From Flavobacteriales bacterium (lineage in GTDB: Bacteria; Bacteroidota; Bacteroidia; Flavobacteriales_F; PHOS-HE28), in contig JADJAA010000001.1 of NCBI GenBank assembly GCA_016704485.1, positions 1,554,824-1,618,823 of the forward strand: a DNA stretch of 64,000 bases, in the 5' to 3' direction. Positions 1,820 through 35,392 of this stretch are shown here, in pieces. The notes under the pieces were generated by a model. The model ran no database searches. It saw only the letters and a list, made by a program, of their open reading frames with translations, and had not been told where the DNA came from. Every line of letters starts with the position of its first letter. Within the stretch, counting starts at the first letter, position 1. A program made the position numbers and the translations under genes.

Positions 1820-3292
1820 TTAAAGCACTACTTGCTGAAGAACCCCTAACACCTCCACCATCGCAAGCGTATCCATCTTGCAATAGGCCAACAGGTCGGT
1901 CCGCAGTTGGGGTACGTTGCCGGTGTAGGTGCCGCTGGCGAGTTGCGTGAAGCGCAGACTGGCGGTGCCGCCTTCCTGCACGTTGAGGGTCTTGTAACTG
2001 AGTGTTGGCACTAAGGCAGGGAGTACCGTCTTGATGCCGTACTTGCCGTTCATTTGCGGGGCGTAGTACCAACCGTGTCTGAAGGCATCCATCAGGTCCT
2101 TGATGCGCGGTAGTAGTTGCTGGATGGCTGGTGCATGGTGTGGAAGGTCGCGCGCTAGATCGCGCAGCACCATGCGTTCGAAGGTTGCGTTGTACGCGAG
2201 GATGTCGCCCGTTGGACCAATGTCCTTGAGCAATTGCTGCACGAGTGCTTCGCGTGGATCGCTGGTGCCATCCGCTAGGAACTCATGGTGCGTTGCCGGT
2301 GCACTTGGTGCGGACTGCACATGCAAGCTGTATTGGAAGGGCATCTGCTGGAACGGACGTGTGCCGTCATAGAGCGGTATGCTCGGCATCATTGTCTCGA
2401 AATCGAAATGATGCACCGGGTATTCCAGCGCCGCCAACCACTGGTGTAGCGGTTCGTGCTGGATGTGTCCTTCGCCACTTTTCCATGCATTCACTTGCCG
2501 ACGTTGTGCAGCGCTGAGCTTTTCATTTTCCGGAATGTCCACCAGCTTCAGGATGCCCCGTTGGTACAACGACCATTTCTGTTCAGTAGCACCTGTTAGC
2601 TCGAATACCGACCGCTCCGGAATGTGCAACCAACAGTGTGGTTTGAAGTCGCACGGGTAGGGTGCATCGCATTGCGGACCAATGTCGACAACGGGTGCTT
2701 GCTCTTGTTGCACCACCTGTTTCAGCGCTTCGATGCGCGCGGGTATCGCCGCTTGCTCACGCAGTACCTCCGCAAGTACGGAGGTGCGGTTGAAGAGCTG
2801 CTGCACATCCACCGCGCCCTGTTTCACATAGCTGTTGTTCAAGTACACAATGCTGACATCCGCCAACGCGATGCTGCCCGAGATGACATAGTACTGCAAC
2901 GCAGCATCCTGCACATACACATCCTTCACGCCTGTGCTGCCTTTCACTTCAAATGCTTTCCATCCCTCGGCCGTATGCACCAGCAGGTCCAACGCGGCCA
3001 ACACACCGTCGCGCATGAACGCCGCTTCGTAGATCACCCGCTCACCGCGCGCAATGGCCGCTGCGGTATCCACCACGCTCTGCGCGAACTCGAACGGCGA
3101 AGGCGGCGCACAGTCCACTCCTCCTGGAAAAAGCTGCTGCGCCATCAACCCTACCGACGTGCCCGAATCAAAGATGGCCTGCTGCTGCGCACCGATGGGT
3201 GGCAACAGATCGCGCCGGTGCTTGTACAACCACAACGCCTTGGGACATTGCTTGCCCCGCATGTACGTGCTTTTGGAGAGTAGGTGGGACAT
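1820..3292 (-). CDS. DUF2779-family protein (predicted nuclease-like)
   Basis: 490-aa ORF with the family-typical N-terminus MSHLLSKSTYMRGKQCPKALWL. The length and motif architecture resemble DUF2779 proteins. This assignment rests on recall of the family consensus. Confidence 0.6.
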   Translation of the reverse strand: MSHLLSKSTYMRGKQCPKALWLYKHRRDLLPPIGAQQQAIFDSGTSVGLMAQQLFPGGVDCAPPSPFEFAQSVVDTAAAIARGERVIYEAAFMRDGVLAALDLLVHTAEGWKAFEVKGSTGVKDVYVQDAALQYYVISGSIALADVSIVYLNNSYVKQGAVDVQQLFNRTSVLAEVLREQAAIPARIEALKQVVQQEQAPVVDIGPQCDAPYPCDFKPHCWLHIPERSVFELTGATEQKWSLYQRGILKLVDIPENEKLSAAQRRQVNAWKSGEGHIQHEPLHQWLAALEYPVHHFDFETMMPSIPLYDGTRPFQQMPFQYSLHVQSAPSAPATHHEFLADGTSDPREALVQQLLKDIGPTGDILAYNATFERMVLRDLARDLPHHAPAIQQLLPRIKDLMDAFRHGWYYAPQMNGKYGIKTVLPALVPTLSYKTLNVQEGGTASLRFTQLASGTYTGNVPQLRTDLLAYCKMDTLAMVEVLGVLQQVVL

Positions 3293-3928: not shown

Positions 3929-5674
3929 TTACTGCACCACCACGCTCAAGGTCCGCACGCGTTCACCTGCACGCACCACCACTAGGTAGCGACCTGCTGC
4001 GGCATCGGGCAACTGGATGGCTTGGCTCGGCGTGTTGCGCTGCTGTCCGCTCCAACACACCTTGCCACTTGCATCGAATACGTTGATGCTCGCTTGGTGC
4101 ATGTCCGATGGAAGCACCAAGTTGAAGCGCCCGGTGTTCGGATTCGGAAAGGCGATGATCATCTCCGCATCGACTTCCTCGTTGAGTGCAGTGATGACCA
4201 ACATGTAATCAGTAGTGAGCGTGCAGCCCGTTGCGGTGGTGACGGTAACACTGTATTGCCCACCTGTTGCAGCCACCACGAAAGGGGCGTCCGAGCCGGG
4301 CAAGGGTACGCCGTTCAGGCTCCACGCGTAGCTCTCGAAATCGCCTTGAACCAACAGCACTTGTCCGCTTGCTTCAATGGTGACCGATGGACACACCACG
4401 ATGGTATCGCTGTTAGCAGTACAGCCGAATGCATTCGTTGCAACACCCCACCACAAGCCGGTGCTATCCGTGGGAACGCAAGGGCCGTTCACGTTGGGCA
4501 CCGTGTCGCCGTTGTTGTACCAGACGTAGGTCAACGGAATGGTATCCGTGGCGCAGAGCAATGCTGCGGCGGTGTCATAGCTCGTGGAAAGTTGGGGTAC
4601 AGGGAACACACGGACCGTATCCGTATCGGTGAAGACCAATTGCGGTACCACGGAAATGGTGAGGCTGCCGAAGGTGCCGTTGCCCAACGCGAAAGGTACT
4701 ACGCCATTGCTGCCGGTCGGGATGTTGAACGTGCCGAGGTCATCGTCCTGGCTCACGGGATCTTCATCGAAGAAGGCGATCGAATACGGTGGGTTCGCTA
4801 AGAGGTGGCCCACATCGTTCCAGGTCATGCTCGTGCTGTTGTCTCCAGTGCCACTCGTGGTGCTGTTGCCGTTGCCATCGGTGAGCACGTAGTACAGATC
4901 CGGATCGCCCGTGCACGCACCGAAGAGCGATGGTTCCTCTACATCGCCGCACCAATTGTCGCTCACGCCGCCCAGCACTACATCGTTAAGTACGAAGCCG
5001 CCGATCGTTGTGGTGAGCGCTACCACATGATCGCCCGGCGTATCAAAACTTGCGCTCGGCGTGGCACTGTTGCTCGTGTTCCCGTTGCCAAGGTCCCACG
5101 CATAACTTGTGGGTGCCGGAGCGCCATCGAGCAACGCGGTGAACTGCACATCGGCACTTCCGCATCCGCTGCTGGGTGTGAATGTGAAACTTGCATTTCC
5201 ACCACTGCCCGCTTGCACTACCAACGTGACACCAAACGTCTGCGACACGTTCAACGTGAAACCGCTCGCTTCCACCTGTGCAATGATGTTGATCGCGATG
5301 GTGTACGTGCCACTTCCAATGGGTGTGCCGCACAGCCGCGCGCAACCATACTGGTTCACCTGCGGATAGTAGATGCCCAACGGTTCGTTCGACGTAAGCT
5401 CCATGCCGAAGGGCACCCCCGTGACACTGGTGATCGTCATCTGCAAAAAGTTGACGTTCATTCCCGTTCCCGGATCGGTGAAGTTGGCCGGTAACCAAAA
5501 GGTGATGTCGCTTGCATACGCTTCACCTGCCGTAGCATCGGGTGGTTGCAACGGACACAGGGTAGGGTAGGCCGGCGTGGCAAAACAAGTGGCATCGATC
5601 GCGCAGCTGATGCATTGCGCGTGTACGCTGCCCAACGCGAGCAGCGCAATAGTGAGGAGGAGTGTTCGGATCAT
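3929..5674 (-). CDS. Secreted protein with T9SS C-terminal sorting domain
   Basis: Likely start at MIRTLLLTIALLALGSVHAQ. The protein is Thr/Gly/Asn-rich with Ig/PKD-like character. The C-terminus ...AIQLPDAAAGRYLVVVRAGERVRTLSVVVQ is typical of the Por/T9SS secretion tail. Confidence 0.6.
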   Translation of the reverse strand: MIRTLLLTIALLALGSVHAQCISCAIDATCFATPAYPTLCPLQPPDATAGEAYASDITFWLPANFTDPGTGMNVNFLQMTITSVTGVPFGMELTSNEPLGIYYPQVNQYGCARLCGTPIGSGTYTIAINIIAQVEASGFTLNVSQTFGVTLVVQAGSGGNASFTFTPSSGCGSADVQFTALLDGAPAPTSYAWDLGNGNTSNSATPSASFDTPGDHVVALTTTIGGFVLNDVVLGGVSDNWCGDVEEPSLFGACTGDPDLYYVLTDGNGNSTTSGTGDNSTSMTWNDVGHLLANPPYSIAFFDEDPVSQDDDLGTFNIPTGSNGVVPFALGNGTFGSLTISVVPQLVFTDTDTVRVFPVPQLSTSYDTAAALLCATDTIPLTYVWYNNGDTVPNVNGPCVPTDSTGLWWGVATNAFGCTANSDTIVVCPSVTIEASGQVLLVQGDFESYAWSLNGVPLPGSDAPFVVAATGGQYSVTVTTATGCTLTTDYMLVITALNEEVDAEMIIAFPNPNTGRFNLVLPSDMHQASINVFDASGKVCWSGQQRNTPSQAIQLPDAAAGRYLVVVRAGERVRTLSVVVQ

Positions 5675-5739
5675 GGTGCAATGGCCTGCCCGAAGATCGG
5701 GTTCGGCGGGGGAAGATACTAGGATACAGCGCCCTTCGT

Positions 5740-6642
5740 TCATCGTGTTCTCCGGAGCCGAGAAGGCTCTTCAGACGTTGGCTCTTCGCCCCCGCGCAGA
5801 CCGTGCGCATCGCGCTCATCCAGAGTCCATTTGGGTTTGGCGGTCTTCAATCGCTTTTCCACTTTCTTAATGTGTTCGGCAGGTGGAATGTTCTCCGGTA
5901 GTGTGCCACCAATACGACGGATGGCATCACGCACCTCCTTGCCTACTGACTCGTGTGTGCGTATTGCCTGCTGATCCCCATGCACACCTTCCCGGGCCAA
6001 TTTGTCACGGGTCTGCGTCATGCGGAATTGGTTCGCAGCGAGTTCGGTTGCGTTCATGCGGTCCAGCAATTGCTCTTTGCCAGGGATGCCCTTGCGCTGT
6101 TTGATCTGTGCGTTACCAATACCTCCGTAGAGCCCTTTGTAACCAGCATCGTGGAATACACCGAACATGCGCCCGTTCACCCCAGCCTGTTGTGCAGCAC
6201 CGCTCAATGCTTTGAATTCTTCGGCTGTTTGCTTGCGAATTTGCAGCCGTTCTTTGTCTGCGGCCAATTGGTCATTCACTTCTTGGCGTCTCGCTTGCAC
6301 AACAAAATACTGCTGCGCTAAGGCGATCTCCGGCTTGCGAGGGTCGCCGTTGATGGCGATTAGATAGCAGGCGAATCGGGAGAGGTGGAAATCGGCCAAC
6401 TGGCGCTCACTGCCCGATCCAAGAGGGACCATTTTGCCGGCGCCGGCAAAATGGTCGGTCGGCTCATTCCCTGACTCTCTACACGCATCTTGTGCCCGTT
6501 TGATGGCCTGTTCAAATCGCCGCCATTGGTCATAACCTAACAACGGTTGCAGCGCTCTGGCACTCCAGAACTCGGCACCATGTGAATTGACCTGCTTCAG
6601 TTCTTCGAAGCTGGGCGGGGTAGGGTTCGGTAACTCACTCAT
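5740..6642 (-). CDS. BRO-N domain / DNA-damage-inducible protein D (DinD)-like protein
   Basis: N-terminus has FWSARALQPLLGYDQWRRFEQAIKRA (BRO-N-like). The ~300-aa length and C-terminal region are consistent with DinD-family annotations. Divergent from the RecQ-PRTase gene. Confidence 0.5.
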   Translation of the reverse strand: MSELPNPTPPSFEELKQVNSHGAEFWSARALQPLLGYDQWRRFEQAIKRAQDACRESGNEPTDHFAGAGKMVPLGSGSERQLADFHLSRFACYLIAINGDPRKPEIALAQQYFVVQARRQEVNDQLAADKERLQIRKQTAEEFKALSGAAQQAGVNGRMFGVFHDAGYKGLYGGIGNAQIKQRKGIPGKEQLLDRMNATELAANQFRMTQTRDKLAREGVHGDQQAIRTHESVGKEVRDAIRRIGGTLPENIPPAEHIKKVEKRLKTAKPKWTLDERDAHGLRGGEEPTSEEPSRLRRTR

Positions 6643-6849
6643 TCTGCTGACCGCTTTCTCGTCAACGCGGTTTGCACAATATACAGGCTTTGGACCAACA
6701 AATGAAGCTAACTACAATCCTCTAAAACCTTAATTCAGGAGCCGACCGCTTCGGCGTCTCCACAATCACAATGATCTCACAAATTGCCTACCTTTCATAG
6801 CGGTGTATTTGTAGATGAGGGTGGCATGGTGCAACCAAGATGAGGGAAC

Positions 6850-9003
6850 TTGAACGATCTTCGACCCGAACTAGCGCCCAATGTTACTAGCGCCCCACAA
6901 ACCCATGGATCCTGTCCTATGCGCACCTTAGAGGAAGATGCCTTGCGCTTGTTGCGGAGTTCGGTAGGGGATACCAAGGCCACCTTCAGGGAAGGTCAAC
7001 TGGAAGCCATCGTCGCCCTGGTCCGTGAGCGAAAGCGCTTGCTGGTGGTGCAATGTACCGGCTGGGGCAAGAGCAATGTGTATTTCATCAGTGCGAAGTT
7101 GCTGCGCGAAAAAGGGCATGGACCCACCGTTATCGTTAGTCCGCTATTGGCTTTGATGCGCAACCAATTGCAGGCCGCAGCGCGCATGGAGCTGAAGGCT
7201 ATCACCATCAACAGTGCCAACACGGATGAATGGGAGACGCTGCAAGAGCAGGTGGTATCCGGTGAAGCCGATGTGCTCCTGATCAGTCCGGAACGACTGG
7301 CCAACGAACGTTTTATCGCCGAGGTGCTGTTGCCCATCGCTGGACGCATCGGCATGCTCGTGGTGGACGAAGCGCATTGCATCAGCGATTGGGGGCACGA
7401 TTTCCGGCCCGACTATCGGCGCATCATCGCGATCCTGAAACAACTGCCTGCCAACCTACCGGTACTGGGTACAACCGCCACTGCCAACCAACGCGTGGTG
7501 GACGATCTGAAGGTGCAACTTGGCGACCTCACCATACAACGTGGGACCTTAGTGCGTGACAGTTTGATGCTCGATGCTGTGCAACTCCCCGACCAAGCCG
7601 CACGCCTCGCTTGGCGGACGCACTACCTGCCCCTGCTCCCCGGATCCGGTATCGTGTACACCCTTACCGTGCGCGATGCGGAGCGCGTTGCCGAATGGTT
7701 GCAACAGAACGGGATCGAAGCAAGGGCCTACCATGCCTCCGTCGTTGATACCGAAGATGGCGATCTGCGCGAGCGCTTGGAGCAGCAACTGCTCGATGGA
7801 AGCATCAAGGCCTTAGTTGCCACCACGGCACTCGGCATGGGCTACGACAAGCCCGACCTGGGTTTCGTGATCCACTTCCAAGCTCCCGGCTCCATCATCG
7901 GCTACTACCAACAAGTGGGGCGCGCCGGAAGGGCGATCGAGAAGGCCTACGGGATACTCCTACATGGCGAAGAAGATGCTGAGATCCATGCCTACTTTCA
8001 AGAGAACGCTTTCCCGAACGAGTCGAATGTGCTGCAGATACTGAAGACTTTAGAAGGTGGCAACGGTCTTTCCATCCGGCAACTGGAGCCGACCATGAAC
8101 CTGCGCTACGGGCAGTTGGAACAGGCCTTGAAATTCCTGAGCATGGAGGACCCTGCGCCGGTGGTGTTGCAGGACCATCTGTGGAAGCGCACACCGGTGG
8201 CCTACACCTTGGACCATGCGCACATCCAGCGCCTCATGGAACTACGAGAGCGCGAACGTGAGCAAGTTGTGGCCTACGTGCAACACACTGGCTGCCGCAT
8301 GGAATTCCTTCAACAGGCCTTGGATGATGTCGTGCATGCACCCTGTGGACATTGCGCCAATTGCTTGGACAAGCACTTCAAGGCGGACATGCCCCCAGCG
8401 GAAGTGGCCCGCGCGGCTACCTTTCTGCGCAGCGCGGAGATGGTACTCACCTGTCCGAAGGCACTACCCGCAGGTGGCTTGGATGCGCTCGACATTAAGG
8501 GCAACATACCGCTGGAGTTGCGCCCGCAGCCCGGAAGGATCCTCTGCCGTTGGGGCGACTCCGGTTGGGGCAAGTTGGTGGCGCAACAGAAGCACGACGG
8601 ACACTTCAAAGACGAACTCGTCCACGCCCTTGCCGAAATGGTGAACGAGCGCTGGTGTCCGGATCCGCCCCCAATGTGGGTGACCTGTGTGCCCTCCCTT
8701 CGCCATCCGGAATTGGTTCCCGATCTTGCACGCCGATTGGCCGCCAAGTTGGAACTTCCGTTCCACAACGTGGTGGAAAAGACCCGCCAGAACGAGGCGC
8801 AGAAAGCCATGCAGAACCGCTACCACCAGTGCCATAACCTCGATGGCGCCTTCGCCATCGGTACGGTGCCCGAAGGGCCTGTGCTATTGGTGGACGATGT
8901 GGTGGATTCCGGCTGGACCATTGCCATTCTTTCGGCACAACTGCTACAGGCCGGTTGTACCTTGGTGTACCCTATCGCACTAGCAAGCACCTCCCATACC
9001 TGA
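6850..9003 (+). CDS. RecQ-family SF2 helicase fused to a C-terminal ComF/GntX-type phosphoribosyltransferase (PRTase) module
   Basis: Walker A CTGWGKSNVYF and DEAHCISDWGHDFRPDYRRI (RecQ DEAH box). Helicase C motifs are present (ALGMGYDKPDLGFVIHFQAPGSIIGYYQQVGRAGR). A Cys-cluster HAPCGHCANC is followed by a ComF-like stretch KTRQNEAQKAMQNRYHQCHNLDGAFAI and the PRPP-binding motif VLLVDDVVDSGWTIAI. The alternative start at MRTLEED is near 6916. Confidence 0.8.
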   Translation: MNDLRPELAPNVTSAPQTHGSCPMRTLEEDALRLLRSSVGDTKATFREGQLEAIVALVRERKRLLVVQCTGWGKSNVYFISAKLLREKGHGPTVIVSPLLALMRNQLQAAARMELKAITINSANTDEWETLQEQVVSGEADVLLISPERLANERFIAEVLLPIAGRIGMLVVDEAHCISDWGHDFRPDYRRIIAILKQLPANLPVLGTTATANQRVVDDLKVQLGDLTIQRGTLVRDSLMLDAVQLPDQAARLAWRTHYLPLLPGSGIVYTLTVRDAERVAEWLQQNGIEARAYHASVVDTEDGDLRERLEQQLLDGSIKALVATTALGMGYDKPDLGFVIHFQAPGSIIGYYQQVGRAGRAIEKAYGILLHGEEDAEIHAYFQENAFPNESNVLQILKTLEGGNGLSIRQLEPTMNLRYGQLEQALKFLSMEDPAPVVLQDHLWKRTPVAYTLDHAHIQRLMELREREREQVVAYVQHTGCRMEFLQQALDDVVHAPCGHCANCLDKHFKADMPPAEVARAATFLRSAEMVLTCPKALPAGGLDALDIKGNIPLELRPQPGRILCRWGDSGWGKLVAQQKHDGHFKDELVHALAEMVNERWCPDPPPMWVTCVPSLRHPELVPDLARRLAAKLELPFHNVVEKTRQNEAQKAMQNRYHQCHNLDGAFAIGTVPEGPVLLVDDVVDSGWTIAILSAQLLQAGCTLVYPIALASTSHT

Positions 9004-10223
9004 TGGACCTAAGACCGGACGACCAAGCCACCTTGCTGCTTACCGCGCACCTGCCCGGAGGCAACGCCGTGCAGCCGCTCTCCACCGGCGAATGGTCACG
9101 GTTCAGTGCGTGGTTGCTTGCACATGAGCACACACCGGGCGACCTGTTCATTGGCGATCCGAAGCACACGCTGGCCACCTTTCAGGACAAGACCATCACC
9201 CTGGAGCGTATCGCACCGTTGCTGGATCGCGGTTTCCAAGTTGCCTTGTTGCTGGAGAAGTGGCAACGTGCAGGGCTCTGGGTGATCACGCGCTCCTCGC
9301 CGGATTATCCGCAACGGCTCACCACCATGCTCGGCGACCAAGCGCCGCCCTTGTTCCATGGTGCAGGCGACCGCCGCAAGCTGGAGACCAAGGCACTTGC
9401 TGTGATCGGATCGCGCAACGCCGCCGAGGCCGATCTGCACTTCGCCCGCCAACTGGGCCACGCCGCCGCACAACAGGGCTGGTCCATCGTAAGCGGTGGT
9501 GCGCGCGGTGTGGACGAAGCCTCCATGCGCGGTGCCATCGAAGCCAGTGGTACCGTGATCGGGGTGGTGGCCGATAGCCTGCTGAAGATGGCCACCAGTC
9601 ACAAGTACCGCGATGCCATCCAACGCAGTGACATCGTCCTGCTCTGTGCCTCGCACCCCGAAGTGGGTTTCTCCGGGGCCAATGCCATGGCGCGCAACAA
9701 GTATGTGTACTGCCTAAGCCGTGCGGCCGTGGTGGTGTGCTCCGATGCCAACAAGGGAGGTACCTGGGCCGGCGCCACTGAGGACCTGAAGAAGAAGTGG
9801 GTGCCCGTGTGGGTGAAGCACCATCCCGATCCACGCAGCGGCAACCGCGCACTGGTGGATCGTGGCGCACAGCCTTTGCCCGATTCCGATCCGCATGCCT
9901 TGGACATGGAGGACCTCGCCAAGGGTAAACTCTCCAGCGCTCAACTCTTCGAACTGCCCATTGCCTCCGACGTTGCCGCCGTATACCAAGCCTCCGGAAC
10001 CACGGCCCCGAAAGAGCTCACCGAAGCGGATGAGATGGAAGCCATCCTCAAGGCACTTGCCACTCCCATGACCGTGAAGGCCCTTGCCAAACATATCGCC
10101 ATGGACGAGGCCCGCATCAGCCACCTGCTGGACCAATTGGTACACCTGCACAAAGTGGAACCACCAACTGGCCGATCACGCAGCTACGCCCTAGCGGGTC
10201 CGGATCTTTTTAGTGGGGAGTGA
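9003..10223 (+). CDS. DprA/Smf-family (SLOG Rossmann) DNA-processing protein paralog, translationally coupled to the upstream helicase-PRTase
   Basis: ATG at 9003 overlaps the upstream TGA (TGATG). The DprA core is present: LAVIGSRNAAEADLHFARQLGHAAAQQGWSIVSGGARGVDEASMRGAIEASGTVIGVVADSL...ARNKYVYCLSRAAVVVCSDANKGGTWAGA. The C-terminal region is winged-helix-like (MTVKALAKHIAMDEARISHLLDQL). Confidence 0.8.
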   Translation: MDLRPDDQATLLLTAHLPGGNAVQPLSTGEWSRFSAWLLAHEHTPGDLFIGDPKHTLATFQDKTITLERIAPLLDRGFQVALLLEKWQRAGLWVITRSSPDYPQRLTTMLGDQAPPLFHGAGDRRKLETKALAVIGSRNAAEADLHFARQLGHAAAQQGWSIVSGGARGVDEASMRGAIEASGTVIGVVADSLLKMATSHKYRDAIQRSDIVLLCASHPEVGFSGANAMARNKYVYCLSRAAVVVCSDANKGGTWAGATEDLKKKWVPVWVKHHPDPRSGNRALVDRGAQPLPDSDPHALDMEDLAKGKLSSAQLFELPIASDVAAVYQASGTTAPKELTEADEMEAILKALATPMTVKALAKHIAMDEARISHLLDQLVHLHKVEPPTGRSRSYALAGPDLFSGE

Positions 10224-10435
10224 GTCGTGTCGCTCAGTACAGCTGGATCATGCTCTTCCCGGTTGAATTGGTAGTACGGTGTTTCTGGCATCGTGGCGTT
10301 CGTTCAAGTATGAACTTGCCGTATCTCGAATGATCGTTCCGGCCACGCGGCCTTTGATAGTGTTCTTTGAGAAAGTTAGCTAAGAGCTCTACTGCGTCGT
10401 TTTTCTATTGGTAGTGTTCAGCTCTCACCCCGCCA

Positions 10436-10633
10436 TCAATAGTCATTATGTTCCAAGATCACCTCCGGCGATAGATCCCATACCATGCTCCCCACGTGGT
10501 AACTGAACCATGCGTTAAAGACTTTCCAGCTCCGGTCCACAGGCCAAGTATCCTCATCCGGGCAAGTGCCGAACAGTTCCATCTCGAAAATGAACGGAGC
10601 ATACGGCTTCACCACATCGGCAATGTCCTTCAC
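10436..10633 (-). CDS. Small hypothetical ORF immediately downstream of the 1610-aa helicase gene
   Basis: 65-aa ORF on the same strand, 30 nt after the giant gene's stop. No recognisable domain. Confidence 0.2.
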   Translation of the reverse strand: MKDIADVVKPYAPFIFEMELFGTCPDEDTWPVDRSWKVFNAWFSYHVGSMVWDLSPEVILEHNDY

Positions 10634-10663
10634 GGTATTTGATGTTGACCAGCCTTTACCCTG

Positions 10664-13600
10664 TCAACCCAACGTGAACTGCACGCGAGGCAATACCACT
10701 TCATAGCTCTTATCCTTCTCCTTATCGTACCAATGCACAATGTATTCTGCCGTAGCGCCTGAAACACGATATCCCTCATTTGCGAAACGGGGTAGTGTCG
10801 AGTCAATGAACTTGCGCGCGTAGAGCAGCACATTGCCGTTCCCGGTGCCAAGACCAAGTGCACTTCCGTTCGTGAATTGTTTCTCATCCGGCACCATATT
10901 GGAGCCCGCAGAAAGGGATGTGATCCGGTCGGAGTTATATGAACACGATCCCAGGTTCACCTCCTTCATACCAAGCACGTATTCAAGTTTATTGGGCCGA
11001 GGGTATACCACCTCATTCGTTTCTCTGATCAACGAGGCATGTTTGTAGGTGGGAAGGAACTGATCATTCGTGTGGATCACTAATTGGTCCATTGATCTTG
11101 TGCAGGCCACATAGAGTAGGCGGAGGTCTTTGTCCTCCTCCATCGGGTAGTTCTTCTGGTATACGAACACGTTATTGAACTCCTTGCCCTTGCTCTTGTG
11201 CATGGTAGATACATGCACCACTCCTTTCTGTGGTTTCACGGCGTCGCTGATCCTGATCTCACGCACGAAAGCATCCCATTCTGATAGGTCATGTCGCCCT
11301 TGGTTCCCTTTCTTGAAGAGCGCAAGTAGGTCTTTCATGTCCGCCCGCAATGGATTCCCCTTGAGCCCTTCTATATATTCCTTAACGGCATTGTCCCAGA
11401 CCTCCTTGGGAATAACACCAATTCCTGGATGGCGTTCACGAACGAATTGGCCGAACGCTCGGACCTCGCGCAAGCGACCTACGGGGAAGTCATCCGAGCC
11501 ACCGATGTAGCGCGCCTTGACGCCATGTTGCTCCAGCATGGCCGTTGCCATGATCGCCTCATTGTTCGTGCGGGTCAATACACTTGTCGTGCCGGTGAGC
11601 GTCGACCGTGCGACGTCCTTTACCAGTCCTGTCAAATGATAGCCGCCGGAATATCGGACCACACGTTGCACTCCCGGCCGATCGTCATTTGCTACAAGTT
11701 CCTCACCATCTTTTATCCGGACTTTGATCTTGGAGGCAATATGATTCGTCAATCGAACGATCGTCTCCTTGCTCCGGTAATTCACAAGTAGGCTATGCGA
11801 TCGCGCCTTGAAGCGGGTTCGGAATTCCGACATGAATCTTGGCGATGCACCGCGCCATTCATAGATGTTCTGGTCGTCATCACCCACTGCGATGATGCGT
11901 GGTTTCTCTGCGGTCTCAGCAAGCATCTGGATCAGTTGCCATTGCTCCTGATCAACATCTTGGAATTCATCCAATACGATCACGCTTTTGTTCGCAATGG
12001 AGGTGACATCCACTTCGCCGGCATGGATAGCCGCCATGGTGCGGCTGATCACAGTTTCCGACCGGTCCAGATCGCCGAGCTGACCCATCAGTTCAAAACA
12101 CAAGCCATGGAATGTCGTGATCCGGATAAGGCCTCGATACTCCGGAACCATGGCATGGACGCGGTCGCGGAACTCCATTGCCGCAGCCTTCGAGAACGTG
12201 AGCATAAGGAATTGCTCAGGCTTCACATCCTCAATGAGCAGAAGGCTCGCCACCTTATGGACAAGGACCCGGGTCTTACCGCTCCCCGGACCCGCAGCAA
12301 CAAGGATCTGGTCCGTACTATCATTGACCACTCCCAATTGCTTCGTATCCAGATCCCCGAAAAGCTCAGTGAATCTGCTTCGGGTGATAGGCCGTGTGAT
12401 ATCGGTGCTGCGCTTCGGAAAGTATTTCTGCACGAAGACATCGTGCTCGAAGCGGAAATAGTCATCTACGAAAGATAACGCGGCCTGAACGCTTTCCATA
12501 CGGCGTGCTGCATACTCTCCCACCATATGGATCTGTTCCACCCTGTTCTGGTAATGATGCCTCAGGTTACCGTAATCCTCTTGGGTGTATTGCTTCCGTA
12601 CGTTCTGCTCCACGCGCTCCACATTCATCCGTTGGTACATGACCATGAACCCGTCCTGCAGGCTCAGTACATTCATGCCGTGTAGGAACAGCAATGCATC
12701 GGCAATGGCTTTCAGGTCATGCTCTTTGCCGAACATCCCTTCGGCCATTGCCGCTCTCAGCCCCAACAAGGAGAATTTCACACGCAATTCCTGCTTGGCA
12801 TCGTCAGCGAGCTTCGACGTATCGGGTACTAGTTTCTCAAGTTGTTCGAAACAAGCCAAGGCAAGTGCTTGGCGCGCTTCCACCTCCTTCCGTAGTTCTT
12901 CCGGGTCCTTCAATAGTGTTATCCTGTAGCTATCTGCTTGCCGGTCCAGGCGCTTGATCCCTACCAGTCTTCGTTTCTTCCAGATCAGGAACAGTGGCTT
13001 CAGATCCTCTATCCTGCTGTCCACCCCCTGGTCAAGAATGCCTTGGTTCAGCGCGCGATAGGTCACGGTCATTTCCTGTTCGGCCAGGAGCCCTACCAAT
13101 GCCTTTTCGGTATTCAGGATGCGTTGCAACCGTGCTTTGGAACCCGCACGTGGTCGACCATCCACATAGGCGGTCAGGTCCTGCTCATCGTTCAAGACCG
13201 CGATGTTCCGCAACAGTTGTACGGTCTCGATCACATCACGCAACTTCATTCCGAGATGACCCGCGACCACATCGACTTGCGATACACCCACTCCATCCTC
13301 ATCCGGTTTCACTAGTCGCTGCAATACCCGTATGCAATTCTCCTTCTGTTTTTCTGTTAATCCGGTATTGTCCCGTACTATCCGTAAGGCATCCTCCAGT
13401 CCTTTGACCATTAGACCGGTAGCGAAAACCTGCGGGGAGTTCAGCGTGCGCTTTATGTAGCCTCGGTCCTCTAGGGCTGCAAGGGATGCGGCCACGCGGT
13501 TCTGGATATCACGCATCTCTTCATCCCATCCCGCGGCTTTGGCAAGCTCCGAAGCCGAACGACTGATCTTGTCCCGGATCTTGGTCATGCCTTTTACCGC

Positions 13601-15496
13601 ACGCCATACCTGCTGTATCTCCTTTTGATTGAGCTTGGTCCGTTGAAGCAAGTGGAAATGGCCGCCCAGGTCATTCTCATTGTATAGGATGTAGCACTTG
13701 GCATCAATGTCTTTGTTGCGGCCAGCGCGACCGGCTTCCTGTACGTAGCTCTCCAGCGAACTGGAGATGTTGTAGTGGATGACGGATCGCACATCCTCCT
13801 TGTCCACACCCATACCGAAAGCCGAGGTTGCCACCATGACATCCACCTCACCATCCATGAAGCTCTCCTGATTGAGCTGCTTCTCTTCGCGCTCCATCTT
13901 GCCATGAAATCCGCGGACCGATATCCCGATCGCCTTGATGCGATCTACAAGCTCATCAACGCGTTTGGTCCGGCTTGCATACACGATCGCGGGTTTCTCA
14001 CAGGTGTTCAGCAGGCCCAATAACACACGTTGACGGGCTTCGGCAGTGGTGTCCTCCACAGGAAGGACCTCGTACTCCAGGTTCTCCCGCCGCGCTTGGC
14101 TTATATAGGGAATAAGGTCCAGACCAAGGCCATTCTTGAAATAGTTCCGGATGTCTTCCACCACTTGCGGCTTGGCGGTGGCAGTAAAACAGGATACGGG
14201 TATGGGCTTCTCGCGCCCAAGGTCGATCTGAAGCTGTTTCAGATAGGGCGCGATGTACAAGTAGTCCACCCTGAAATCATGCCCCCAACTGGAAAAGCAA
14301 TGGGCCTCATCTATAACGAACCGCGAGATCTGTCTCTTCTGCAGCAGACGGGAAAGCGTGGGAGAACGAAGCGTTTCCGGAGCGATATACAACAGGTGGA
14401 TCCCGCCATCCTCTACTTGCTTCAGGACTTCTTGCCGCTCCAATGGGGAAAGTAGTCCGCTCAGATGGGCCGCACGCACTATCTGGTGCCGATGTTCCAG
14501 CACCTCCACCTGATCTTTCATCAGCGAAACCAACGGCGAGATGACCACGGTGAGCGAACGGGTAAGCGCACCTTCCATTAGAGCAGGCAGCTGGAACGTG
14601 AGCGACTTGCCTCCGCCAGTGGGGAAGACGGTCAGGACCGACTCTCCGGCCAACGCTGAACCGACGGCCTTTTCCTGCACTCCAGCCTGGCTTTCACCGT
14701 CGAACAATCGGAAGTGATCATACCCGAAATACTCCTTCAGTCCGCGCTTTGCATCCATCCAGGTCGCACAGTACTCGCAGCCCGCATCATTACACTGTGC
14801 GAACCGCAGGTTATGCAGTACCTGTTGGGTAAAAGGCAAGCTATGTACGACCCAAGGGGGTAGGATGGATGCTTCATCGGTCGTGTCGATCAGGGCCAGC
14901 GCATGCGCGAGCTCTACAGGTCTATCAGTAGTAAAGCGTTGCAGCGGAGCAGAAGCGCAAATGAGGCCTGAGTAACGCGAGGTGATCAAGTCGGCTACGT
15001 CTGTCTTGTCCTGCTCATGTGCCGCAAGCTCGATCATGCCATCGTACCCTTCCTGTCCGGAAAGCAAACCGGCATAGACCGAACGCATGACAACAGGCAA
15101 ACAATTGAATGTACCTAAAAGTTCTTCCAATAGTTCGCGACACAGTTTTGCGTCACTGAGCGGATCGTTGTCGCCGTCCTCGTTGCGGATCTTGTAGCCC
15201 TTCACCAACTTGTGATAGGGCTTATTGGCGTACAGCAATGCACTCCAACACAAAGTATCCAAGAGCACCTTACCCTTTAATACATTCTGCCCCATGTGCT
15301 TCCGAAGCACAGGCGCATCATGGCCAACAAGGTTGTGCCCGGCGACAATGGTTGCCCTGTCTATCAGCTTCTTAAGTCCATCCAGCTTACGCTTGTGGAA
15401 TTCGCTGCTCCCGAGCACAGCTCCTACGTCCAGGAGTTTTTTACTCCGCTGATCTAACTCGAGATCCAGAATGAGGACCTTGTCCAGTGCGTTCAT
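10664..15496 (-). CDS. 1610-aa multidomain protein with DnaQ-like 3'-5' exonuclease, RecQ-like SF2 helicase and UvrD-like SF1 helicase domains
   Basis: N-terminal exonuclease-like LILDLELD...AGHNLVGHD. RecQ core: FPTGGGKSLTFQLPAL, VIDEAHCFSSWGHDFRVDY, AFGMGVDKEDVRSVIHYNISSSLESYVQEAGRAGR. UvrD core: VAAGPGSGKTRVLVHKVA, ITTFHGLCFEL, VLDEFQDVDQEQWQLIQ, AVGDDDQNIYEWRGASP, VSTMHKSKGKEFNNVFV...LLYVACTRSMDQLVIH. Confidence 0.85.
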   Translation of the reverse strand: MNALDKVLILDLELDQRSKKLLDVGAVLGSSEFHKRKLDGLKKLIDRATIVAGHNLVGHDAPVLRKHMGQNVLKGKVLLDTLCWSALLYANKPYHKLVKGYKIRNEDGDNDPLSDAKLCRELLEELLGTFNCLPVVMRSVYAGLLSGQEGYDGMIELAAHEQDKTDVADLITSRYSGLICASAPLQRFTTDRPVELAHALALIDTTDEASILPPWVVHSLPFTQQVLHNLRFAQCNDAGCEYCATWMDAKRGLKEYFGYDHFRLFDGESQAGVQEKAVGSALAGESVLTVFPTGGGKSLTFQLPALMEGALTRSLTVVISPLVSLMKDQVEVLEHRHQIVRAAHLSGLLSPLERQEVLKQVEDGGIHLLYIAPETLRSPTLSRLLQKRQISRFVIDEAHCFSSWGHDFRVDYLYIAPYLKQLQIDLGREKPIPVSCFTATAKPQVVEDIRNYFKNGLGLDLIPYISQARRENLEYEVLPVEDTTAEARQRVLLGLLNTCEKPAIVYASRTKRVDELVDRIKAIGISVRGFHGKMEREEKQLNQESFMDGEVDVMVATSAFGMGVDKEDVRSVIHYNISSSLESYVQEAGRAGRNKDIDAKCYILYNENDLGGHFHLLQRTKLNQKEIQQVWRAVKGMTKIRDKISRSASELAKAAGWDEEMRDIQNRVAASLAALEDRGYIKRTLNSPQVFATGLMVKGLEDALRIVRDNTGLTEKQKENCIRVLQRLVKPDEDGVGVSQVDVVAGHLGMKLRDVIETVQLLRNIAVLNDEQDLTAYVDGRPRAGSKARLQRILNTEKALVGLLAEQEMTVTYRALNQGILDQGVDSRIEDLKPLFLIWKKRRLVGIKRLDRQADSYRITLLKDPEELRKEVEARQALALACFEQLEKLVPDTSKLADDAKQELRVKFSLLGLRAAMAEGMFGKEHDLKAIADALLFLHGMNVLSLQDGFMVMYQRMNVERVEQNVRKQYTQEDYGNLRHHYQNRVEQIHMVGEYAARRMESVQAALSFVDDYFRFEHDVFVQKYFPKRSTDITRPITRSRFTELFGDLDTKQLGVVNDSTDQILVAAGPGSGKTRVLVHKVASLLLIEDVKPEQFLMLTFSKAAAMEFRDRVHAMVPEYRGLIRITTFHGLCFELMGQLGDLDRSETVISRTMAAIHAGEVDVTSIANKSVIVLDEFQDVDQEQWQLIQMLAETAEKPRIIAVGDDDQNIYEWRGASPRFMSEFRTRFKARSHSLLVNYRSKETIVRLTNHIASKIKVRIKDGEELVANDDRPGVQRVVRYSGGYHLTGLVKDVARSTLTGTTSVLTRTNNEAIMATAMLEQHGVKARYIGGSDDFPVGRLREVRAFGQFVRERHPGIGVIPKEVWDNAVKEYIEGLKGNPLRADMKDLLALFKKGNQGRHDLSEWDAFVREIRISDAVKPQKGVVHVSTMHKSKGKEFNNVFVYQKNYPMEEDKDLRLLYVACTRSMDQLVIHTNDQFLPTYKHASLIRETNEVVYPRPNKLEYVLGMKEVNLGSCSYNSDRITSLSAGSNMVPDEKQFTNGSALGLGTGNGNVLLYARKFIDSTLPRFANEGYRVSGATAEYIVHWYDKEKDKSYEVVLPRVQFTLG

Positions 15497-15719: not shown

Positions 15720-17534
15720 TTACAAGCCTTCGTAATAGCCCTTGATCTTTTGTGCCATCAGGTGTTTGCGTTCCTCCAAAAAGGTCTGGTAGCTTTTTAC
15801 ATCATAGTCGAAGATAGCTGTTGGGATGCAGTTCTCGCGCATGTTCTTGCGCAGGTCGGCCATGTTACGCAGACCACCGATGTCACCTTTGCCTTGCTCA
15901 AGCTTGTCCGCAACGGTCGTAAAGTATACCGCTGGCGTTTTGTCACCGATCTTGATGTTTCCGGGTTGGTCCATGTACACCAGATTGCTCACGCGATTGT
16001 ACAGACTGCGACCCAAGCCATTCTTCTTCAACAAGCTGCGGGGGAAGATGTGGTGTACATCTCCGCGTGTAAGCAACATGTCGTTCACGGTGAGGTGCCG
16101 ACTGAACAGACCATGGTCGTTCGCGTTGGCTTGGGCAGCTAGGAATACGCCGAAGAACGGACTGCTCATCACTGGGCTTTCCAAATGCCCTGGAAGTACA
16201 GAATTCCAGAACGCATCACTCAGGTCACCTGCTTCGATCTCGGCTAAGTAGTCGGAAGCATTGCGTTCGTTCAGCCGTTTGATGTCAAAGTCGAATTGGC
16301 TTTCGAAGCTGCCCGTTGCACGTTCGGTCAAGATGCTCATAACGTACCAACGGCGCACCAAGCTTTGTAATTCATTGCCTCGGTCCATTCCTTGACGACG
16401 CAAATGCAGGTACAAGAAATAGGCGAAGTTGATCGCGTTCTTACTGCGCATCAACTTGCTGCGCACGAAGCCTGCCGACCGAAGGATCAACGTGAAGAAC
16501 TTGAAGTCAGTCTCATTCATGAAGCGGGCCACACCAGCGTCCAACTGCTTGAAAGAATTTTCCATAATGGTCTCCTCGAACGTGCGGTTCACGAAATCGC
16601 GTCCACTAAGTAGGCTGACCAGGTCGCTCATTTTACCACGACCGAATTCCACACCGCTGGCAACACGCAACATATCCGTGTAGGCCGGGTCATAGAGATC
16701 TTCGGTTTCGCTGCGTAGCCACTTCATGTTCTTGAAGTGCTCCGTGGCTGCGAACTCGGGGTCGTTCTCCTTGATGTGCTCGTAGTACTGCGGCTCTTTG
16801 CTCAGGTGGCAGAAGTAATCGATGGCCTTGCGCAGAACCGGACCACCATGGTGCTCGTTGCTGGCGATCTTGCTCATGGCAAAGTCCGCTTGGCTCAATA
16901 CGACTCCTTTGCTGTTGATGCGGATGAAGATCTCCGTTACCGTCTCTATGTCCAGTTCGTGGTTCAGTTCGATCACGCCGATCTGCCGCTTGGCTAAATT
17001 GGCCAATTGCCCAAGGCTGCTCTCCACAAGCTCGGCATCTGCATCCGGGTTTGCTGCGGTGTATGCTTTGTTCAATTTGATCAAGCTGAAACCACTCCCA
17101 AAGAACACCGCGATATCCGGCAACCACGCCTTGTCCTTTTGGATGATGGGCGTTTGCACCTCGAACTTCTGGGTGATGGGATGGAACGCGATCTTGATCT
17201 TGATCCGCGCATAATCCTTGTCCACCACGTATTCATCCATTAAAGCAGCACGCAATGCTGTTATGCGTTGTTGCCCATCGATCAAGATCTTCTTGCCGCT
17301 GCCAATGCTGCCATCTTTCAAGCGCACATCCGGGTTCTTCCATGTAATAATGTAGCCCACTGGAAAACCTTGGTAGATGCTATCCATCAGATCGCGGACT
17401 TTGCTCTTATCCCAAACGAATGGGCGCTGGATCTCGGGTATCGCGATCTCTTTCTCTTTCACCCACGACAATAAACTTTCGATAAGCGGCTGTTGGATAC
17501 TGTATTTCTGTGTTTGCATGATCGTGTTGAACAA
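15720..17534 (-). CDS. GmrSD-family type IV (modification-dependent) restriction endonuclease, DUF262 + DUF1524 fusion
   Basis: N-terminal DUF262/ParB-like motif IPEIQRPFVWDKSKVRDLMDSIYQGFPVGYII...LIDGQQRITAL. C-terminal His-Me finger of DUF1524 (DVHHIFPRSLLKKNG). Confidence 0.8.
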   Translation of the reverse strand: MFNTIMQTQKYSIQQPLIESLLSWVKEKEIAIPEIQRPFVWDKSKVRDLMDSIYQGFPVGYIITWKNPDVRLKDGSIGSGKKILIDGQQRITALRAALMDEYVVDKDYARIKIKIAFHPITQKFEVQTPIIQKDKAWLPDIAVFFGSGFSLIKLNKAYTAANPDADAELVESSLGQLANLAKRQIGVIELNHELDIETVTEIFIRINSKGVVLSQADFAMSKIASNEHHGGPVLRKAIDYFCHLSKEPQYYEHIKENDPEFAATEHFKNMKWLRSETEDLYDPAYTDMLRVASGVEFGRGKMSDLVSLLSGRDFVNRTFEETIMENSFKQLDAGVARFMNETDFKFFTLILRSAGFVRSKLMRSKNAINFAYFLYLHLRRQGMDRGNELQSLVRRWYVMSILTERATGSFESQFDFDIKRLNERNASDYLAEIEAGDLSDAFWNSVLPGHLESPVMSSPFFGVFLAAQANANDHGLFSRHLTVNDMLLTRGDVHHIFPRSLLKKNGLGRSLYNRVSNLVYMDQPGNIKIGDKTPAVYFTTVADKLEQGKGDIGGLRNMADLRKNMRENCIPTAIFDYDVKSYQTFLEERKHLMAQKIKGYYEGL

Positions 17535-17620: not shown

Positions 17621-20600
17621 TCAAGCACTGCGCTCACCCGGCTGTGCGTTCCCTTGCACCCACTCCACTACCGAGATGATCTTATCCTGATCATTCTCAT
17701 TCGGGAATAGGCCGAAGATCCCTTCTTGGTGTAGGTCCGTGAACGTTGAACCCGGCTCTGCGAGCATGCGTTTGTCGATCACGCCGTTCACCGTGAGGTG
17801 CCGAATGATGGAATCGATGAAGTGGATCTGCGTAGCACTGAAGATGGAGCCGGACAAGAATTCGCCGAAGGCTGCTTTTGCTGCGCCTTCATCAAGGCCG
17901 ATGATGCTGCGAATGAAATAGCCTAGTGGCCGTTCCTCGCCAAGTTCCTTCATCAAAGCCTCCTTCGTGCCGCGTTCGTCTCCATCGAACAGGATGCGTT
18001 CCAGTTCCACTAGCTCAGCGGTCGTGATCGGCTCATTGGTGTATAGTTTGTGAATGGTAAGCTGGTGTTTGTGCGAGCGGATGAACTCCTCTACACGCAT
18101 CCGATAGCTACGCATGGTGTAGCTACCTGGCATGGAGATGATATCCTCACCCTCGCTCACCAACTCATCTCTCAGGTCCGAGTATACCACTTTGCGTTCC
18201 TCGCGCGGTATCAAGCGCACTAGATCGCGCAATTGTTTTCGTGTGAATTCCAAGGCTTCCAGACCGAACACAGCGGCTCGTTGTTGTTGATCATTTGCGA
18301 CATCAAGAACTGCTTTGATCGCTGGATACCGCTCCTGCACTACGGGAATGTTGGAGAGCCGGGCAAGCTGTGTGGCGGTTGAGGCCAACGTGCGGAACAG
18401 GCGATCTACTGACGGCGCCTCTTGGGCCACAGCAATTTCCAGATCGAGCATAAGTAGGTCAAATCGTTTGGCCAGCTCGTCCTTGTCCGGTAGTTCGATC
18501 AAGTGACCAACGGTCTCGAACAGATCACTGATCCCGCTTTTTGATAACGCATTCCATGCGGTACGTTCACGGTAGTGATCGAGCACACGTTGCGCAGGAC
18601 GAATGCGCACGGTGTGCCGCAATTCCCAAAGTGCCTGGACCCAACTATGCGCACTATTCAAAAGCTCAACGCGTAGTGCTTGATCTTTTGGTACCTGATG
18701 GGCTGGTTCACGCAGTTGTTCACTAAGTAGGATAGTTGCTTCAAAGATCCGTTGCGATAGGCTGGGGGAGCGCACAGGTTCAATGCCTTCCGGCCGCAGG
18801 TTGAAGAAGCTGTAGTTGCCACAGAGATCGAAGATCCTGAAGTTCTCCTTGTGCTGGCCGGGACCGAACAGATCCGGGCATAAGCGTGTGCCGCGGCCAA
18901 CCATTTGCCAGAACTTGGACTTGCTATAGACCGGTTTAAAGAACACCAAGTTCACGATCTCAGGAATATCAATACCCGTATCCAACATATCCACACTCAC
19001 GGCGATCTGTGGATACCGGTCCTTATCACTGAAATTATCTATGATGCTCTGGGAGTATTGCTCCTTACTGTGTACCACCGACATGAAATGCCCACCGTAC
19101 TGCGGGAACTGATCTTCAAAACGGTTCTGTATGGCCCGGGCATGGTCTATGTTCCTTGCAAAGACAACGGTCTTGCCCAGCTTCTCACCACCTTCCACTT
19201 TGATCCCGTTCTCCATCACATAGGCCAACACCTGATCGATGGTGTTCGAGTTGAAGAGCCAGTTATTGATCGCGGGCGCTCCGATCTCTTCGGGTATATT
19301 CCCTTGGTCGTCCCGGAAGGTCTCTTCGTAATGTGTCCTATCGCTCTCACTCAGGTCATCGTAGCGGATACCGCGTTGCAGAAAGCCGAAGTCCACTGCT
19401 TTGCCAATGGGCGGCACCAGAAAACGATCGGCTACGGCCTGCCCTAATTCATAGAACGATGTCGGGTTATGCTCTTCGCAATCGAACAAGGCATAGGTAT
19501 CCCGATCCCCTTGGTCGTGTGGTGTTGCAGTAAGGCCGACCAACAAGGAATCGAAATAGGTGAAAATAGCACCGTACCGATCGTACACTGAGCGATGCGC
19601 CTCATCCACAATGATCAGATCGAAGTGACCGACACCGAAGGTCTTCACATCATCACTCCGCACTTGGTCCACGCGGTTCATTACCGTGGGGTAGGTGCTG
19701 AAGACCACCCGTGCGCTTTCATCATAGCGCTGTTTGGTGAGATCCAATGTGGTAACATTCGGCAGGTTCTTCTCAAAGGCCCGTTTTGCCTGTGTGACCA
19801 AGGCATTGCGATCAGCGAGAAAGAGCACACGCTTCGCCCAATTCGCTTTCAGTAGAAGGTCCACTAACGCGGCAACGGTACGCGTCTTGCCAGCCCCAGT
19901 GGCCATTACGATCAATGCTTTTCGCTTAAGACCGCGCATGCCATCTTCATCCACCCAACTTTCTGCAACCCGCTTGATCGCTTGATGTTGGTAATAGCGT
20001 TCCACGATCTGCTCATCGATCGGCACATGCCGAATGTTCACACGACCGATACGCCGATCAACGACCCGTTGCAATTCGTCCCGCGTGTAAATGCCCTGTA
20101 CAGCGCGTGGACCATAAAAGGTGTCATCCCAGATCCACGTATCGAAACCGTTGCTATAGAATATCACCGGGCGCTGTCCGGTCATGCGTTCCAGGCAATC
20201 AGCGTAAAGGCTTGCTTGCACACGGCCTTGTTGGGCATCGTGGGTGGTGCGCTTGGCCTCTACTACGGCCAGCGGTTTACCATCTGCACCCCAGAGCACG
20301 TAATCTACCTTGCCGTTGCCGTTGGGATTGGTGCTCAATGGCATCCCTGTTACCGGGTATTCGATCACGTTGGATGCGGCAGGGTCCCAGCCTGCTTCGC
20401 GCAACAGTTCATCAATGAAGAGTAACCGTGTATCCGCCTCCGAATATTCAGAAGCAGGTATGGGTATGTTCTCATGGCGCTCCTTGCGCTCCTGGATCGC
20501 TGCCAGGCGTTCTGCCAATATCTGCTTTTCTCCTTCTAATTTCAACCGTTGCTCGCGCTCGGTCTCCATCGCTACACGTTGCGCTTCATAACGCTCCTGT

Positions 20601-21079: not shown

Positions 21080-21301
21080 GGAGGCGCAATTGACGATATT
21101 CTAAGCACTTGTACAATTACAAGATGCGAATAAGTCGAGCCTATGATGTGCGGCTTGTGATGGTAACTGCCGCGTGTGGCCCTTTACGGCTCTAAAATAC
21201 ATGTGGATACTTCAGAACCGGTCTTCTTGCTGCTAAGAGAATGCTAATTCCTCTGAAGCACTACATTGCGGACATGTGCACCCACACACGCCTGCTATTA
21301 G

Positions 21302-23375: not shown

Positions 23376-23390
23376 CCATTTCCGATCCCT

Positions 23391-23460
23391 ACTCCCCCCA
23401 AAACGCCCCCTGCAGCAAAAGCCCGAACAAGTCCTCGCTCCGGCGTAGGTTCGCAGTGGA
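23391..23460. repeat. Orphan copy of the hsdS 3' terminus (direct repeat copy A, ~85% identical to 24314-24385)
   Basis: On the minus strand this short open frame encodes ...RSEDLFGLLLQGAFWGE*, homologous to the real HsdS C-terminus QSEGLFGSLLQGAFRGELGN*. It lies just 3' of the 324-aa gene. Confidence 0.7.
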
Positions 23461-23476
23461 ACACCGGTAGTGCTGT

Positions 23477-24274: not shown

Positions 24275-24302
24275 TATGTCCGTGCTGCGTGATCCTCTTC
24301 CG

Positions 24303-27004: not shown

Positions 27005-27017
27005 GGGGTGAAGATGG

Positions 27018-32234: not shown

Positions 32235-32343
32235 TGGTCCTCGCCACCAAGGGTCTATATGGTTGGATAATCGCTCAACCAACGAACTTCCCTATGGCAA
32301 CGGACCAAAAGTCCCGGTCACCTGTGCAGTCTATCTGCACAGT

Positions 32344-33983: not shown

Positions 33984-34206
33984 GGTCCGCTATCTATACC
34001 ATACTACTATAGGGCACATTGAACCTTAGTCTGGACTTCCGCCTTCGGAACTGCATTCGCTGCCAGATGATCATTGGGGTGCAATTATCCCAAACCTATA
34101 CCATATTACTATAGGGGGCATAAGCCTCCATCTCCGGCTCGTGAACTTTGGAGGTAAAGATGGTGTGATTTGACCTACTACCTATACCATATTACTATAT
34201 GGTGCT
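33984..34206. promoter_or_regulatory. Three dispersed copies of a ~21-bp dyad-symmetric site (cCTATAccatattacTATAGGg) spaced ~90-110 bp apart
   Basis: Copies at ~33986-34008, ~34094-34116 and ~34182-34204. The 6-bp inverted arms CCTATA/TATAGG are operator-like. Confidence 0.5.
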
Positions 34207-34287
34207 TTGCACCGTGCGCCTCGTGGTGCACACTTGTGGTTCAGAACTGCTTCATGTAGGCCTGGTGCAAGAGGCTGTATTTGTTCC

Positions 34288-35352: not shown

Positions 35353-35392
35353 ACCCCGCTGTTTTTGCTGGGTCGTTTTTTTTGCTGGGGGG
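35353..35392 (+). terminator. Rho-independent terminator (plus strand)
   Basis: acgaccc-cgctgtttttgct-gggtcgt stem-loop followed by T8. Confidence 0.5.

Follow-up and report, generated by a model that had tools for sequence, protein, structure and literature searches.

RqlH proteins join a RecQ-like helicase to a ComF-like phosphoribosyltransferase (PRTase). They were defined in Mycobacterium smegmatis, where RqlH is a 3'-5' translocase and helicase with a spacer of ~90 amino acids (aa) between its ATPase and zinc-binding domains and without an HRDC domain, and they are spread widely, Bacteroidetes included (Ordonez, Unciuleac and Shuman, 2012; PMC3378886). Escherichia coli RqlH is genotoxic when its partner RqlI is missing, leading to an SOS response and filamentation; this toxicity requires D663 of the PRTase site, the substitutions K49A and D148A abolish helicase activity, and RqlI, described as having a DprA/molybdenum cofactor (MoCo) carrier-like domain as well as a helix-turn-helix (HTH), binds RqlH (Russell and Mulvey, 2015; PMC4670107). 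The rqlH gene always lies 5' of rqlI, mostly near or overlapping it, and PsyrT and PsyrA of Pseudomonas syringae (Sberro, 2013) are the same system (PMC4670107). PsyrTA (RqlHI) was subsequently reported among phage-protective systems, having a DprA-like antitoxin and a PRTase toxin in common with ShosTA (Millman et al., 2022); the architecture of the family accordingly dates from 2012, its toxin-antitoxin behavior from 2013 and 2015, and its role in phage defense from 2022. Here we describe a PsyrTA-like gene pair in a 64,000-nucleotide stretch of contig JADJAA010000001.1 (hereafter, the window) from the metagenome-assembled genome (MAG) of an activated-sludge Flavobacteriales bacterium.

A PsyrTA-like gene pair with overlapping stop and start codons

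Two adjacent genes of the window very probably constitute a PsyrTA (RqlHI) toxin-antitoxin or abortive-infection defense operon (Table 1). Several lines of evidence carry this assignment: firstly, the PADLOC PsyrT profile matches the first protein at 951.9 bits, aligning residues 3–693 with profile positions 3–686 of 689, and the PsyrA profile matches the second at 414.9 bits over 1–387 of 398; secondly, the two proteins are 59% identical to E. coli RqlH over 688 aa and 45% identical to E. coli RqlI over 291 aa, respectively; thirdly, all of the RqlH hallmarks set out by Ordonez et al. (2012) are present, namely a RecQ-like ATPase, a linker of ~90 aa, a four-cysteine (Cys4) zinc domain, the absence of HRDC and a ComF-like PRTase. 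Domain order is as in the PsyrTA/RqlHI systems of P. syringae and E. coli F11 and in M. smegmatis RqlH, and toxin-first gene order, the TGATG junction and the key residues are as in the E. coli pair. Relative to E. coli RqlHI, only the host and the genomic context differ: the pair described here sits in a defense island beside dinD, whereas rqlHI of E. coli DSM 103246 lies between gntU and yhgN, its genes labeled 'RecQ family ATP-dependent DNA helicase' and 'DNA-processing protein DprA'. Public labels of this kind mask a defense toxin-antitoxin pair, which matters for annotation. A first-pass annotation of this DNA had considered the fusion of a RecQ motor to a PRTase distinctive; the fusion is instead the defining trait of a large family, already described since 2012.

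At its maximum length, the first open reading frame (ORF) extends from a TTG at 6850 to 9003 on the forward strand and encodes the 717 aa originally attributed to this protein. Translation of psyrT most likely begins at the ATG of position 6919 (MRTLEED...), giving 694 aa. We prefer this start because an identical 694-aa protein (P0001, 'MAG: RecQ family ATP-dependent DNA helicase [Flavobacteriales bacterium]') is known from at least 22 contigs, because gene callers place a 6919-type start on the contigs carrying it, with a 406-aa gene directly after, and because the alignments to the PsyrT profile and to E. coli RqlH begin at residues 3–11 of this form. The RecQ DEAH core and the PRTase recognized in the longer reading frame are both present. 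The reported overlap with a full-length DprA-like gene holds as well: the psyrT stop codon and the psyrA start codon have a single base in common, and the E. coli rqlHI junction is also TGATG.

Domain composition of PsyrT and PsyrA

Residue numbers of PsyrT are those of the 694-aa form. Pfam identifies DEAD (2.6e-22), Helicase_C (5e-14) and RecQ_Zn_bind domains, the recQ_fam model TIGR00614 scores 242.9 (cut-off 219.8), and the RecQ, BLM and RECQ1 structures in the PDB match residues 5–353, RecQ homology stopping near residue 353. This superfamily 2 (SF2) core contains motif I (GWGKS, 48–52), motif II (DEAH, 150–153) and motif VI (QQVGRAGR, 331–338), with K51 and D150 corresponding to K49 and D148 of E. 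coli RqlH. The RqlH-specific linker that follows gave a weak winged-helix-like hint (RPA_C, E = 0.12). Beyond it lie four cysteines with the spacing C-x16-C-x2-C-x2-C, in a segment that PF16124 matches at 24.4 bits within the whole protein and at 26.3 bits when searched alone, against a cut-off of 25; what had been taken for a zinc ribbon belonging to the ComF module is actually a tetracysteine domain of the RecQ type. PsyrT has the SF2 ATPase core and Cys4 zinc-binding domain of canonical bacterial RecQ but differs from it in the inserted linker, in the PRTase at its C-terminus and in lacking HRDC, for which Pfam gave no match in the protein, and it scores under the recQ equivalog cut-offs (TIGR01389, 273.2 versus 640.2; PRK11057, 203 versus 1015).

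Because a sequence-only search of the PDB with the PRTase domain returned marginal matches to the loops of phosphoribosyl pyrophosphate (PRPP) synthetase and orotate phosphoribosyltransferase (E values of at least 0.01), and neither ComF nor ShosT, a comparison of folds was needed. The predicted C-terminal fold is, with confidence, that of a PRTase, and its nearest structural relative is ComF. The PRPP motif VLLVDDVVDSGWT proposed in the first-pass annotation lies within it; D660 of this loop corresponds to D663 of E. coli RqlH, the residue needed for toxicity in that species.

PsyrA matches DNA_processg_A (PF02481, 6.8e-36) and SLOG cluster4 (PF18306, 2e-12) in Pfam and, among PDB structures, DprA (3maj), the MoCo carrier protein (2iz5) and, weakly, ShosA (9vzo/8zva); its Rossmann domain also gave weak matches to LOG-type phosphoribohydrolase families and solved structures. 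At the C-terminus, matches to HTH_20, HTH_IclR, HTH_5 and MarR (E = 0.03–0.16) and to Csa3 (E = 0.0018) were all sub-threshold, and accord with the HTH described in RqlI. PsyrA scores under the equivalog cut-offs for housekeeping DprA (TIGR00732, 88.9 versus 191.15; PRK10736, 53.6 versus 495), and no second DprA-like ORF was found in the 64-kb window. Housekeeping DprA identity was rejected on these cut-offs and on the pairing of the gene with psyrT across phyla.

The combination of a PRTase with a DprA-like protein had earlier suggested a ShosTA-like module, and the domain pair is indeed common to the two systems. ShosTA likewise pairs a PRTase toxin that depends on its PRPP site for toxicity with an antitoxin of the DprA fold, and both systems are associated with DNA damage, filamentation and phage defense via growth arrest; moreover, the ShosA profile reaches 79.5 bits on PsyrA, alongside the weak matches to ShosA structures. 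That score is set against the 414.9 bits of the PsyrA profile, and ShosT carries an N-terminal pyrophosphatase in place of the RecQ helicase and zinc domain. PsyrT does not have this toxin architecture of a pyrophosphatase/hydrolase joined to a PRTase without a helicase, which refutes ShosTA membership, and we regard a place in the ShosTA family proper as barely conceivable. The ShosT PRTase is a PRPP-binding domain that perturbs purine metabolism, and ShosA binds single-stranded DNA (ssDNA) and RecA but not its toxin, whereas RqlI binds RqlH. By profile and by structure, the likeness of the locus to ShosTA is much weaker than its likeness to PsyrTA or ComF.

A second early suggestion was a unit resembling the competence set of ComFA helicase, ComFC and DprA, which would take up or process ssDNA. 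This is very unlikely. The PsyrT helicase is of the RecQ family rather than the ComFA type and is fused to the PRTase; the equivalog cut-offs for comF (20.1 versus 233.55) and GntX (21.9 versus 304) are missed, as are those for DprA given above; and the E. coli homolog acts as a toxin-antitoxin pair. Nor is there a competence-gene context in the scanned ORFs: the competence-pilus and ComEC families gave no Pfam or PADLOC match in the larger ORFs scanned, all within the first ~48 kb of the window. The missed curated cut-offs, together with the pairing of the DprA-like gene with psyrT across phyla, led us to reject a competence module.

Distribution and proposed function

PsyrT has at least 8000 scored candidate relatives at E ≤ 1e-20, the best 120 of which are all full-length and 57–100% identical to it. 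For locus comparison we used 80 loci from contigs chosen at one genome per species, 78 of them with at least 900 nucleotides (nt) of downstream sequence. These 80 relatives, at 46–59% identity, come from Proteobacteria, Bacteroidota, Cyanobacteria, Chloroflexota, Acidobacteriota, Verrucomicrobiota, Planctomycetota, Gemmatimonadota, Spirochaetota, Actinomycetota, Bacillota and others, a breadth that suggests horizontal spread. A PsyrA homolog lies directly 3' of the helicase gene in 75 of the 78 loci, with an intergenic spacing of −8 to +14 nt in 73 of these 75 pairs (overlap classes are approximate, as start-codon choice favored the start nearest the stop). A distant DNA search located a homologous locus in 1656 of 5426 complete E. 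coli genomes (30%). Full-length PsyrT homologs occur on 12 plasmid records, haloarchaeal megaplasmids included, and none was found in phage genomes at E ≤ 1e-50. Judged by these searches, the distribution of PsyrTA is patchy and accessory.

By analogy with its homologs, PsyrT would be a 3'-5' RecQ-like DNA helicase, the polarity being that of the M. smegmatis protein, and its C-terminal ComF-like PRTase would be the toxic part, as in E. coli and P. syringae. PsyrA, a DprA-fold protein presumably translated from the same transcript and coupled to PsyrT at the TGATG junction, would bind and restrain PsyrT, again as in those two species. Infection or another insult might then unbalance toxin and antitoxin or generate aberrant DNA, leaving PsyrT unrestrained, a trigger step that we infer. 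Free PsyrT would bring its PRPP site and helicase to bear together, damaging or stalling replication and eliciting the SOS response and filamentation, and the resulting growth arrest would leave the phage cycle incomplete, by analogy with the protection reported by Millman et al. (2022). Our literature search found no paper dedicated to the PsyrTA mechanism.

A number of points weigh against reading this locus as a toxin-antitoxin defense operon. Gene structure, domain folds, catalytic motifs, full-length family membership, gene pairing and defense-island context are established for the locus itself; toxicity, neutralization and phage protection are ascribed to the Flavobacteriales copy by homology. 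The PRTase was assigned from its structure model together with the motif: Pfam Pribosyltran scores 19.3 bits, under its cut-off, and the Pfam, GntX and ComF sequence matches to this domain all fall under curated thresholds. In most Gram-positive genomes, RqlH occurs without RqlI (PMC4670107), so the helicase-PRTase is not invariably a toxin in need of a PsyrA-type antitoxin. Finally, an E. coli PsyrTA afforded no measurable protection against the phages tried in one study, and the defense phenotype is therefore context-dependent.

The last two points also speak for a model put forward by Russell and Mulvey (PMC4670107), in which RqlH and RqlI form a cooperative helicase complex for DNA maintenance or repair. 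Here the DprA-like partner would load or regulate the RecQ-like helicase in a housekeeping-type role, and toxicity would be a side effect of imbalance, with defense not the role of the pair. In keeping with this model, M. smegmatis has no classical RecQ, and its RqlH is a genuine 3'-5' helicase (PMC3378886). The accessory, patchy occurrence of the pair (30% of E. coli genomes), its presence in many phyla at identities that suggest horizontal transfer, its position here inside a dense defense island and the reported phage defense (Millman et al., 2022) all argue the other way. We consider a maintenance role improbable and a minor rival, albeit one compatible with defense, since the two are not mutually exclusive.

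Within the toxin-antitoxin defense reading, which we favor, PsyrT might use PRPP to modify the DNA strand being unwound, yielding, for instance, phosphoribosylated bases or ends, rather than a small metabolite. This idea arises because the PRTase has the ssDNA-handling ComF as its nearest structural relative and a 3'-5' helicase as its fusion partner; we hold it to be a long shot. If it were true, PsyrA would shield ssDNA or reverse the modification, and this would apply family-wide and not be special to this copy. The acceptor of PsyrT and its trigger are a problem for the whole family, no more tractable through this locus.

The sequence separating the divergent dinD and psyrT genes would have a regulatory role and presumably includes the psyrTA promoter. 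Two short direct repeats just upstream of psyrT, ACTAGCGCCC and AGATGAGGG, might serve the putative PsyrA HTH as operator sites, or might be due to chance. Scans of 6500–10800 for sigma-70 promoters and for terminators gave no excess over shuffled sequence.

The surrounding defense island

Besides psyrTA, the island contains the divergent dinD, a 1610-aa multi-helicase, a GmrSD_N protein, type I restriction-modification (RM) R, S and M genes, a methyltransferase (MTase)-HATPase protein, PDC-M51A with a WYL protein, and Septu. The locus thereby adds a Bacteroidota example in a well-populated defense island and opens no new question. The first-pass annotation had read the defense neighbors and divergent DinD as favoring a conflict or DNA-damage role; both are present, but DinD is not a conserved partner. 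Searching with tblastn, we found no DinD, GmrSD-like protein or giant helicase within ±4 kb of the 80 relatives, the sole matches being those of the giant helicase's RecQ core crossing to PsyrT itself. As DinD is absent from these flanks, its adjacency is lineage-specific and uninformative on function, and a functional link between psyrTA and any of these three neighbors was rejected for want of co-occurrence. A tRNA scan for an island boundary found none, and Rfam gave no match in the whole window.

Table 1. Coordinates of psyrTA, its domains and motifs, and neighboring features of the window
Feature	Position	Strand	Basis or remark
psyrT/rqlH, RecQ-like helicase fused to ComF-like PRTase, putative toxin	6919–9003	+	694 aa; PADLOC, E. 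coli RqlH alignment, gene calls
RecQ-like SF2 ATPase core, aa 1–353	6919–7977	+	Pfam DEAD, Helicase_C; TIGR00614; PDB matches
RqlH-specific linker, aa 354–444	7978–8250	+	Gap between end of RecQ homology and zinc domain
RecQ-type tetracysteine zinc-binding domain, aa 445–483	8251–8367	+	PF16124; Cys 459/476/479/482
ComF-like PRTase domain, aa 490–694	8386–9000	+	Structure model and PRPP motif
PRPP loop, aa 655–667	8881–8919	+	Motif search
TGATG junction	9001–9005	+	cTGATGg; psyrT stop TGA 9001–9003, psyrA ATG 9003–9005
psyrA/rqlI, DprA-like, putative antitoxin	9003–10223	+	406 aa; PADLOC PsyrA, E. coli RqlI alignment
DprA/SLOG-type Rossmann domain, aa 87–291	9261–9875	+	PF02481, PF18306, PDB; SGGARGVD at aa 164–171
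Putative C-terminal winged HTH, aa ~345–398	10035–10196	+	Sub-threshold matches
Divergent intergenic region, dinD (-)/psyrT (+)	6643–6918		Presumed psyrTA promoter region
Direct repeat ACTAGCGCCC	6870–6879, 6886–6895		Two exact copies 16 nt apart
Direct repeat AGATGAGGG	6813–6821, 6838–6846		Two exact copies 25 nt apart
DUF2779 protein	1820–3292	-	490 aa
PKD-domain protein	3929–5743	-	604 aa
dinD	5740–6642	-	NF008573 364.5 bits (cut-off 242); Bro-N domain; PADLOC PDC-S13
Small ORF	10436–10633	-	65 aa
Exonuclease-RecQ-UvrD fusion	10664–15496	-	1610 aa
GmrSD_N (DUF262-type) protein	15720–17534	-	PADLOC HEC-05
hsdR	17621–21079	-	Type I RM
ORF between hsdR and cyclase gene			253 aa; no family match
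Guanylate/adenylate cyclase	21999–23375	+	458 aa
ORF	23477–24451		324 aa; no family match
hsdS	24303–25448
hsdM	25445–27004
Protein after hsdM			423 aa; no above-threshold match
N6-MTase, specificity-like and HATPase_c protein	28213–30909		898 aa
Radical-SAM/B12-binding protein beside WYL/WCX regulator	30972–33354	-	PADLOC candidate PDC-M51A, 388.9 bits
Septu PtuB	35458–36426
Septu PtuA	36435–38822		795 aa; N-terminus also matches PtuB profiles

The giant helicase, an exonuclease-RecQ-UvrD fusion, is more unusual than the psyrTA pair; its RecQ-like SF2 core (recQ_fam 283.8, above 219.8) is followed by a UvrD-like superfamily 1 (SF1) helicase. Its best 120 homologs are all full-length (1550–1628 aa); those among them bearing organism names are all from Bacteroidota and labeled only 'RecQ family helicase', and two homologs were seen in differing genomic contexts. 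In two sister MAGs (L004, 13746–18577; L005, 13745–18576), the gene is present as two ORFs (786 + 828 aa and 1201 + 394 aa, respectively), either through assembly-error frameshifts or through real inactivation. Directly downstream of the giant gene is the 65-aa ORF, which is consistent in the sister assemblies and has no family match.

Unrelated genes interrupt the type I RM system, which spans 17621–30909. In a strain variant (L006, 20606–22084), DUF1643 and PDDEXK_5 genes stand in place of its R gene, beside GmrSD_N; the island therefore varies among closely related strains. Further along, window positions 34000–42000 have a GC content of 0.44–0.48, compared to 0.52–0.61 elsewhere, and look like a separate, more recent insertion; in addition to Septu, this segment holds a 604-aa protein with an amidohydrolase tail only, a papain-like protease and an SH3-CHAP protein.

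On the other side of psyrTA, the PKD-domain protein carries a type IX secretion sorting tail, and the start of its gene overlaps dinD by 4 nt, an odd apparent operon (3929–6642, reverse strand) of a DNA-damage-inducible protein with a secreted one. The DUF2779 protein, with a weak Cas4-like (PD-(D/E)xK) match in PADLOC, lies at the left-hand end of the island.

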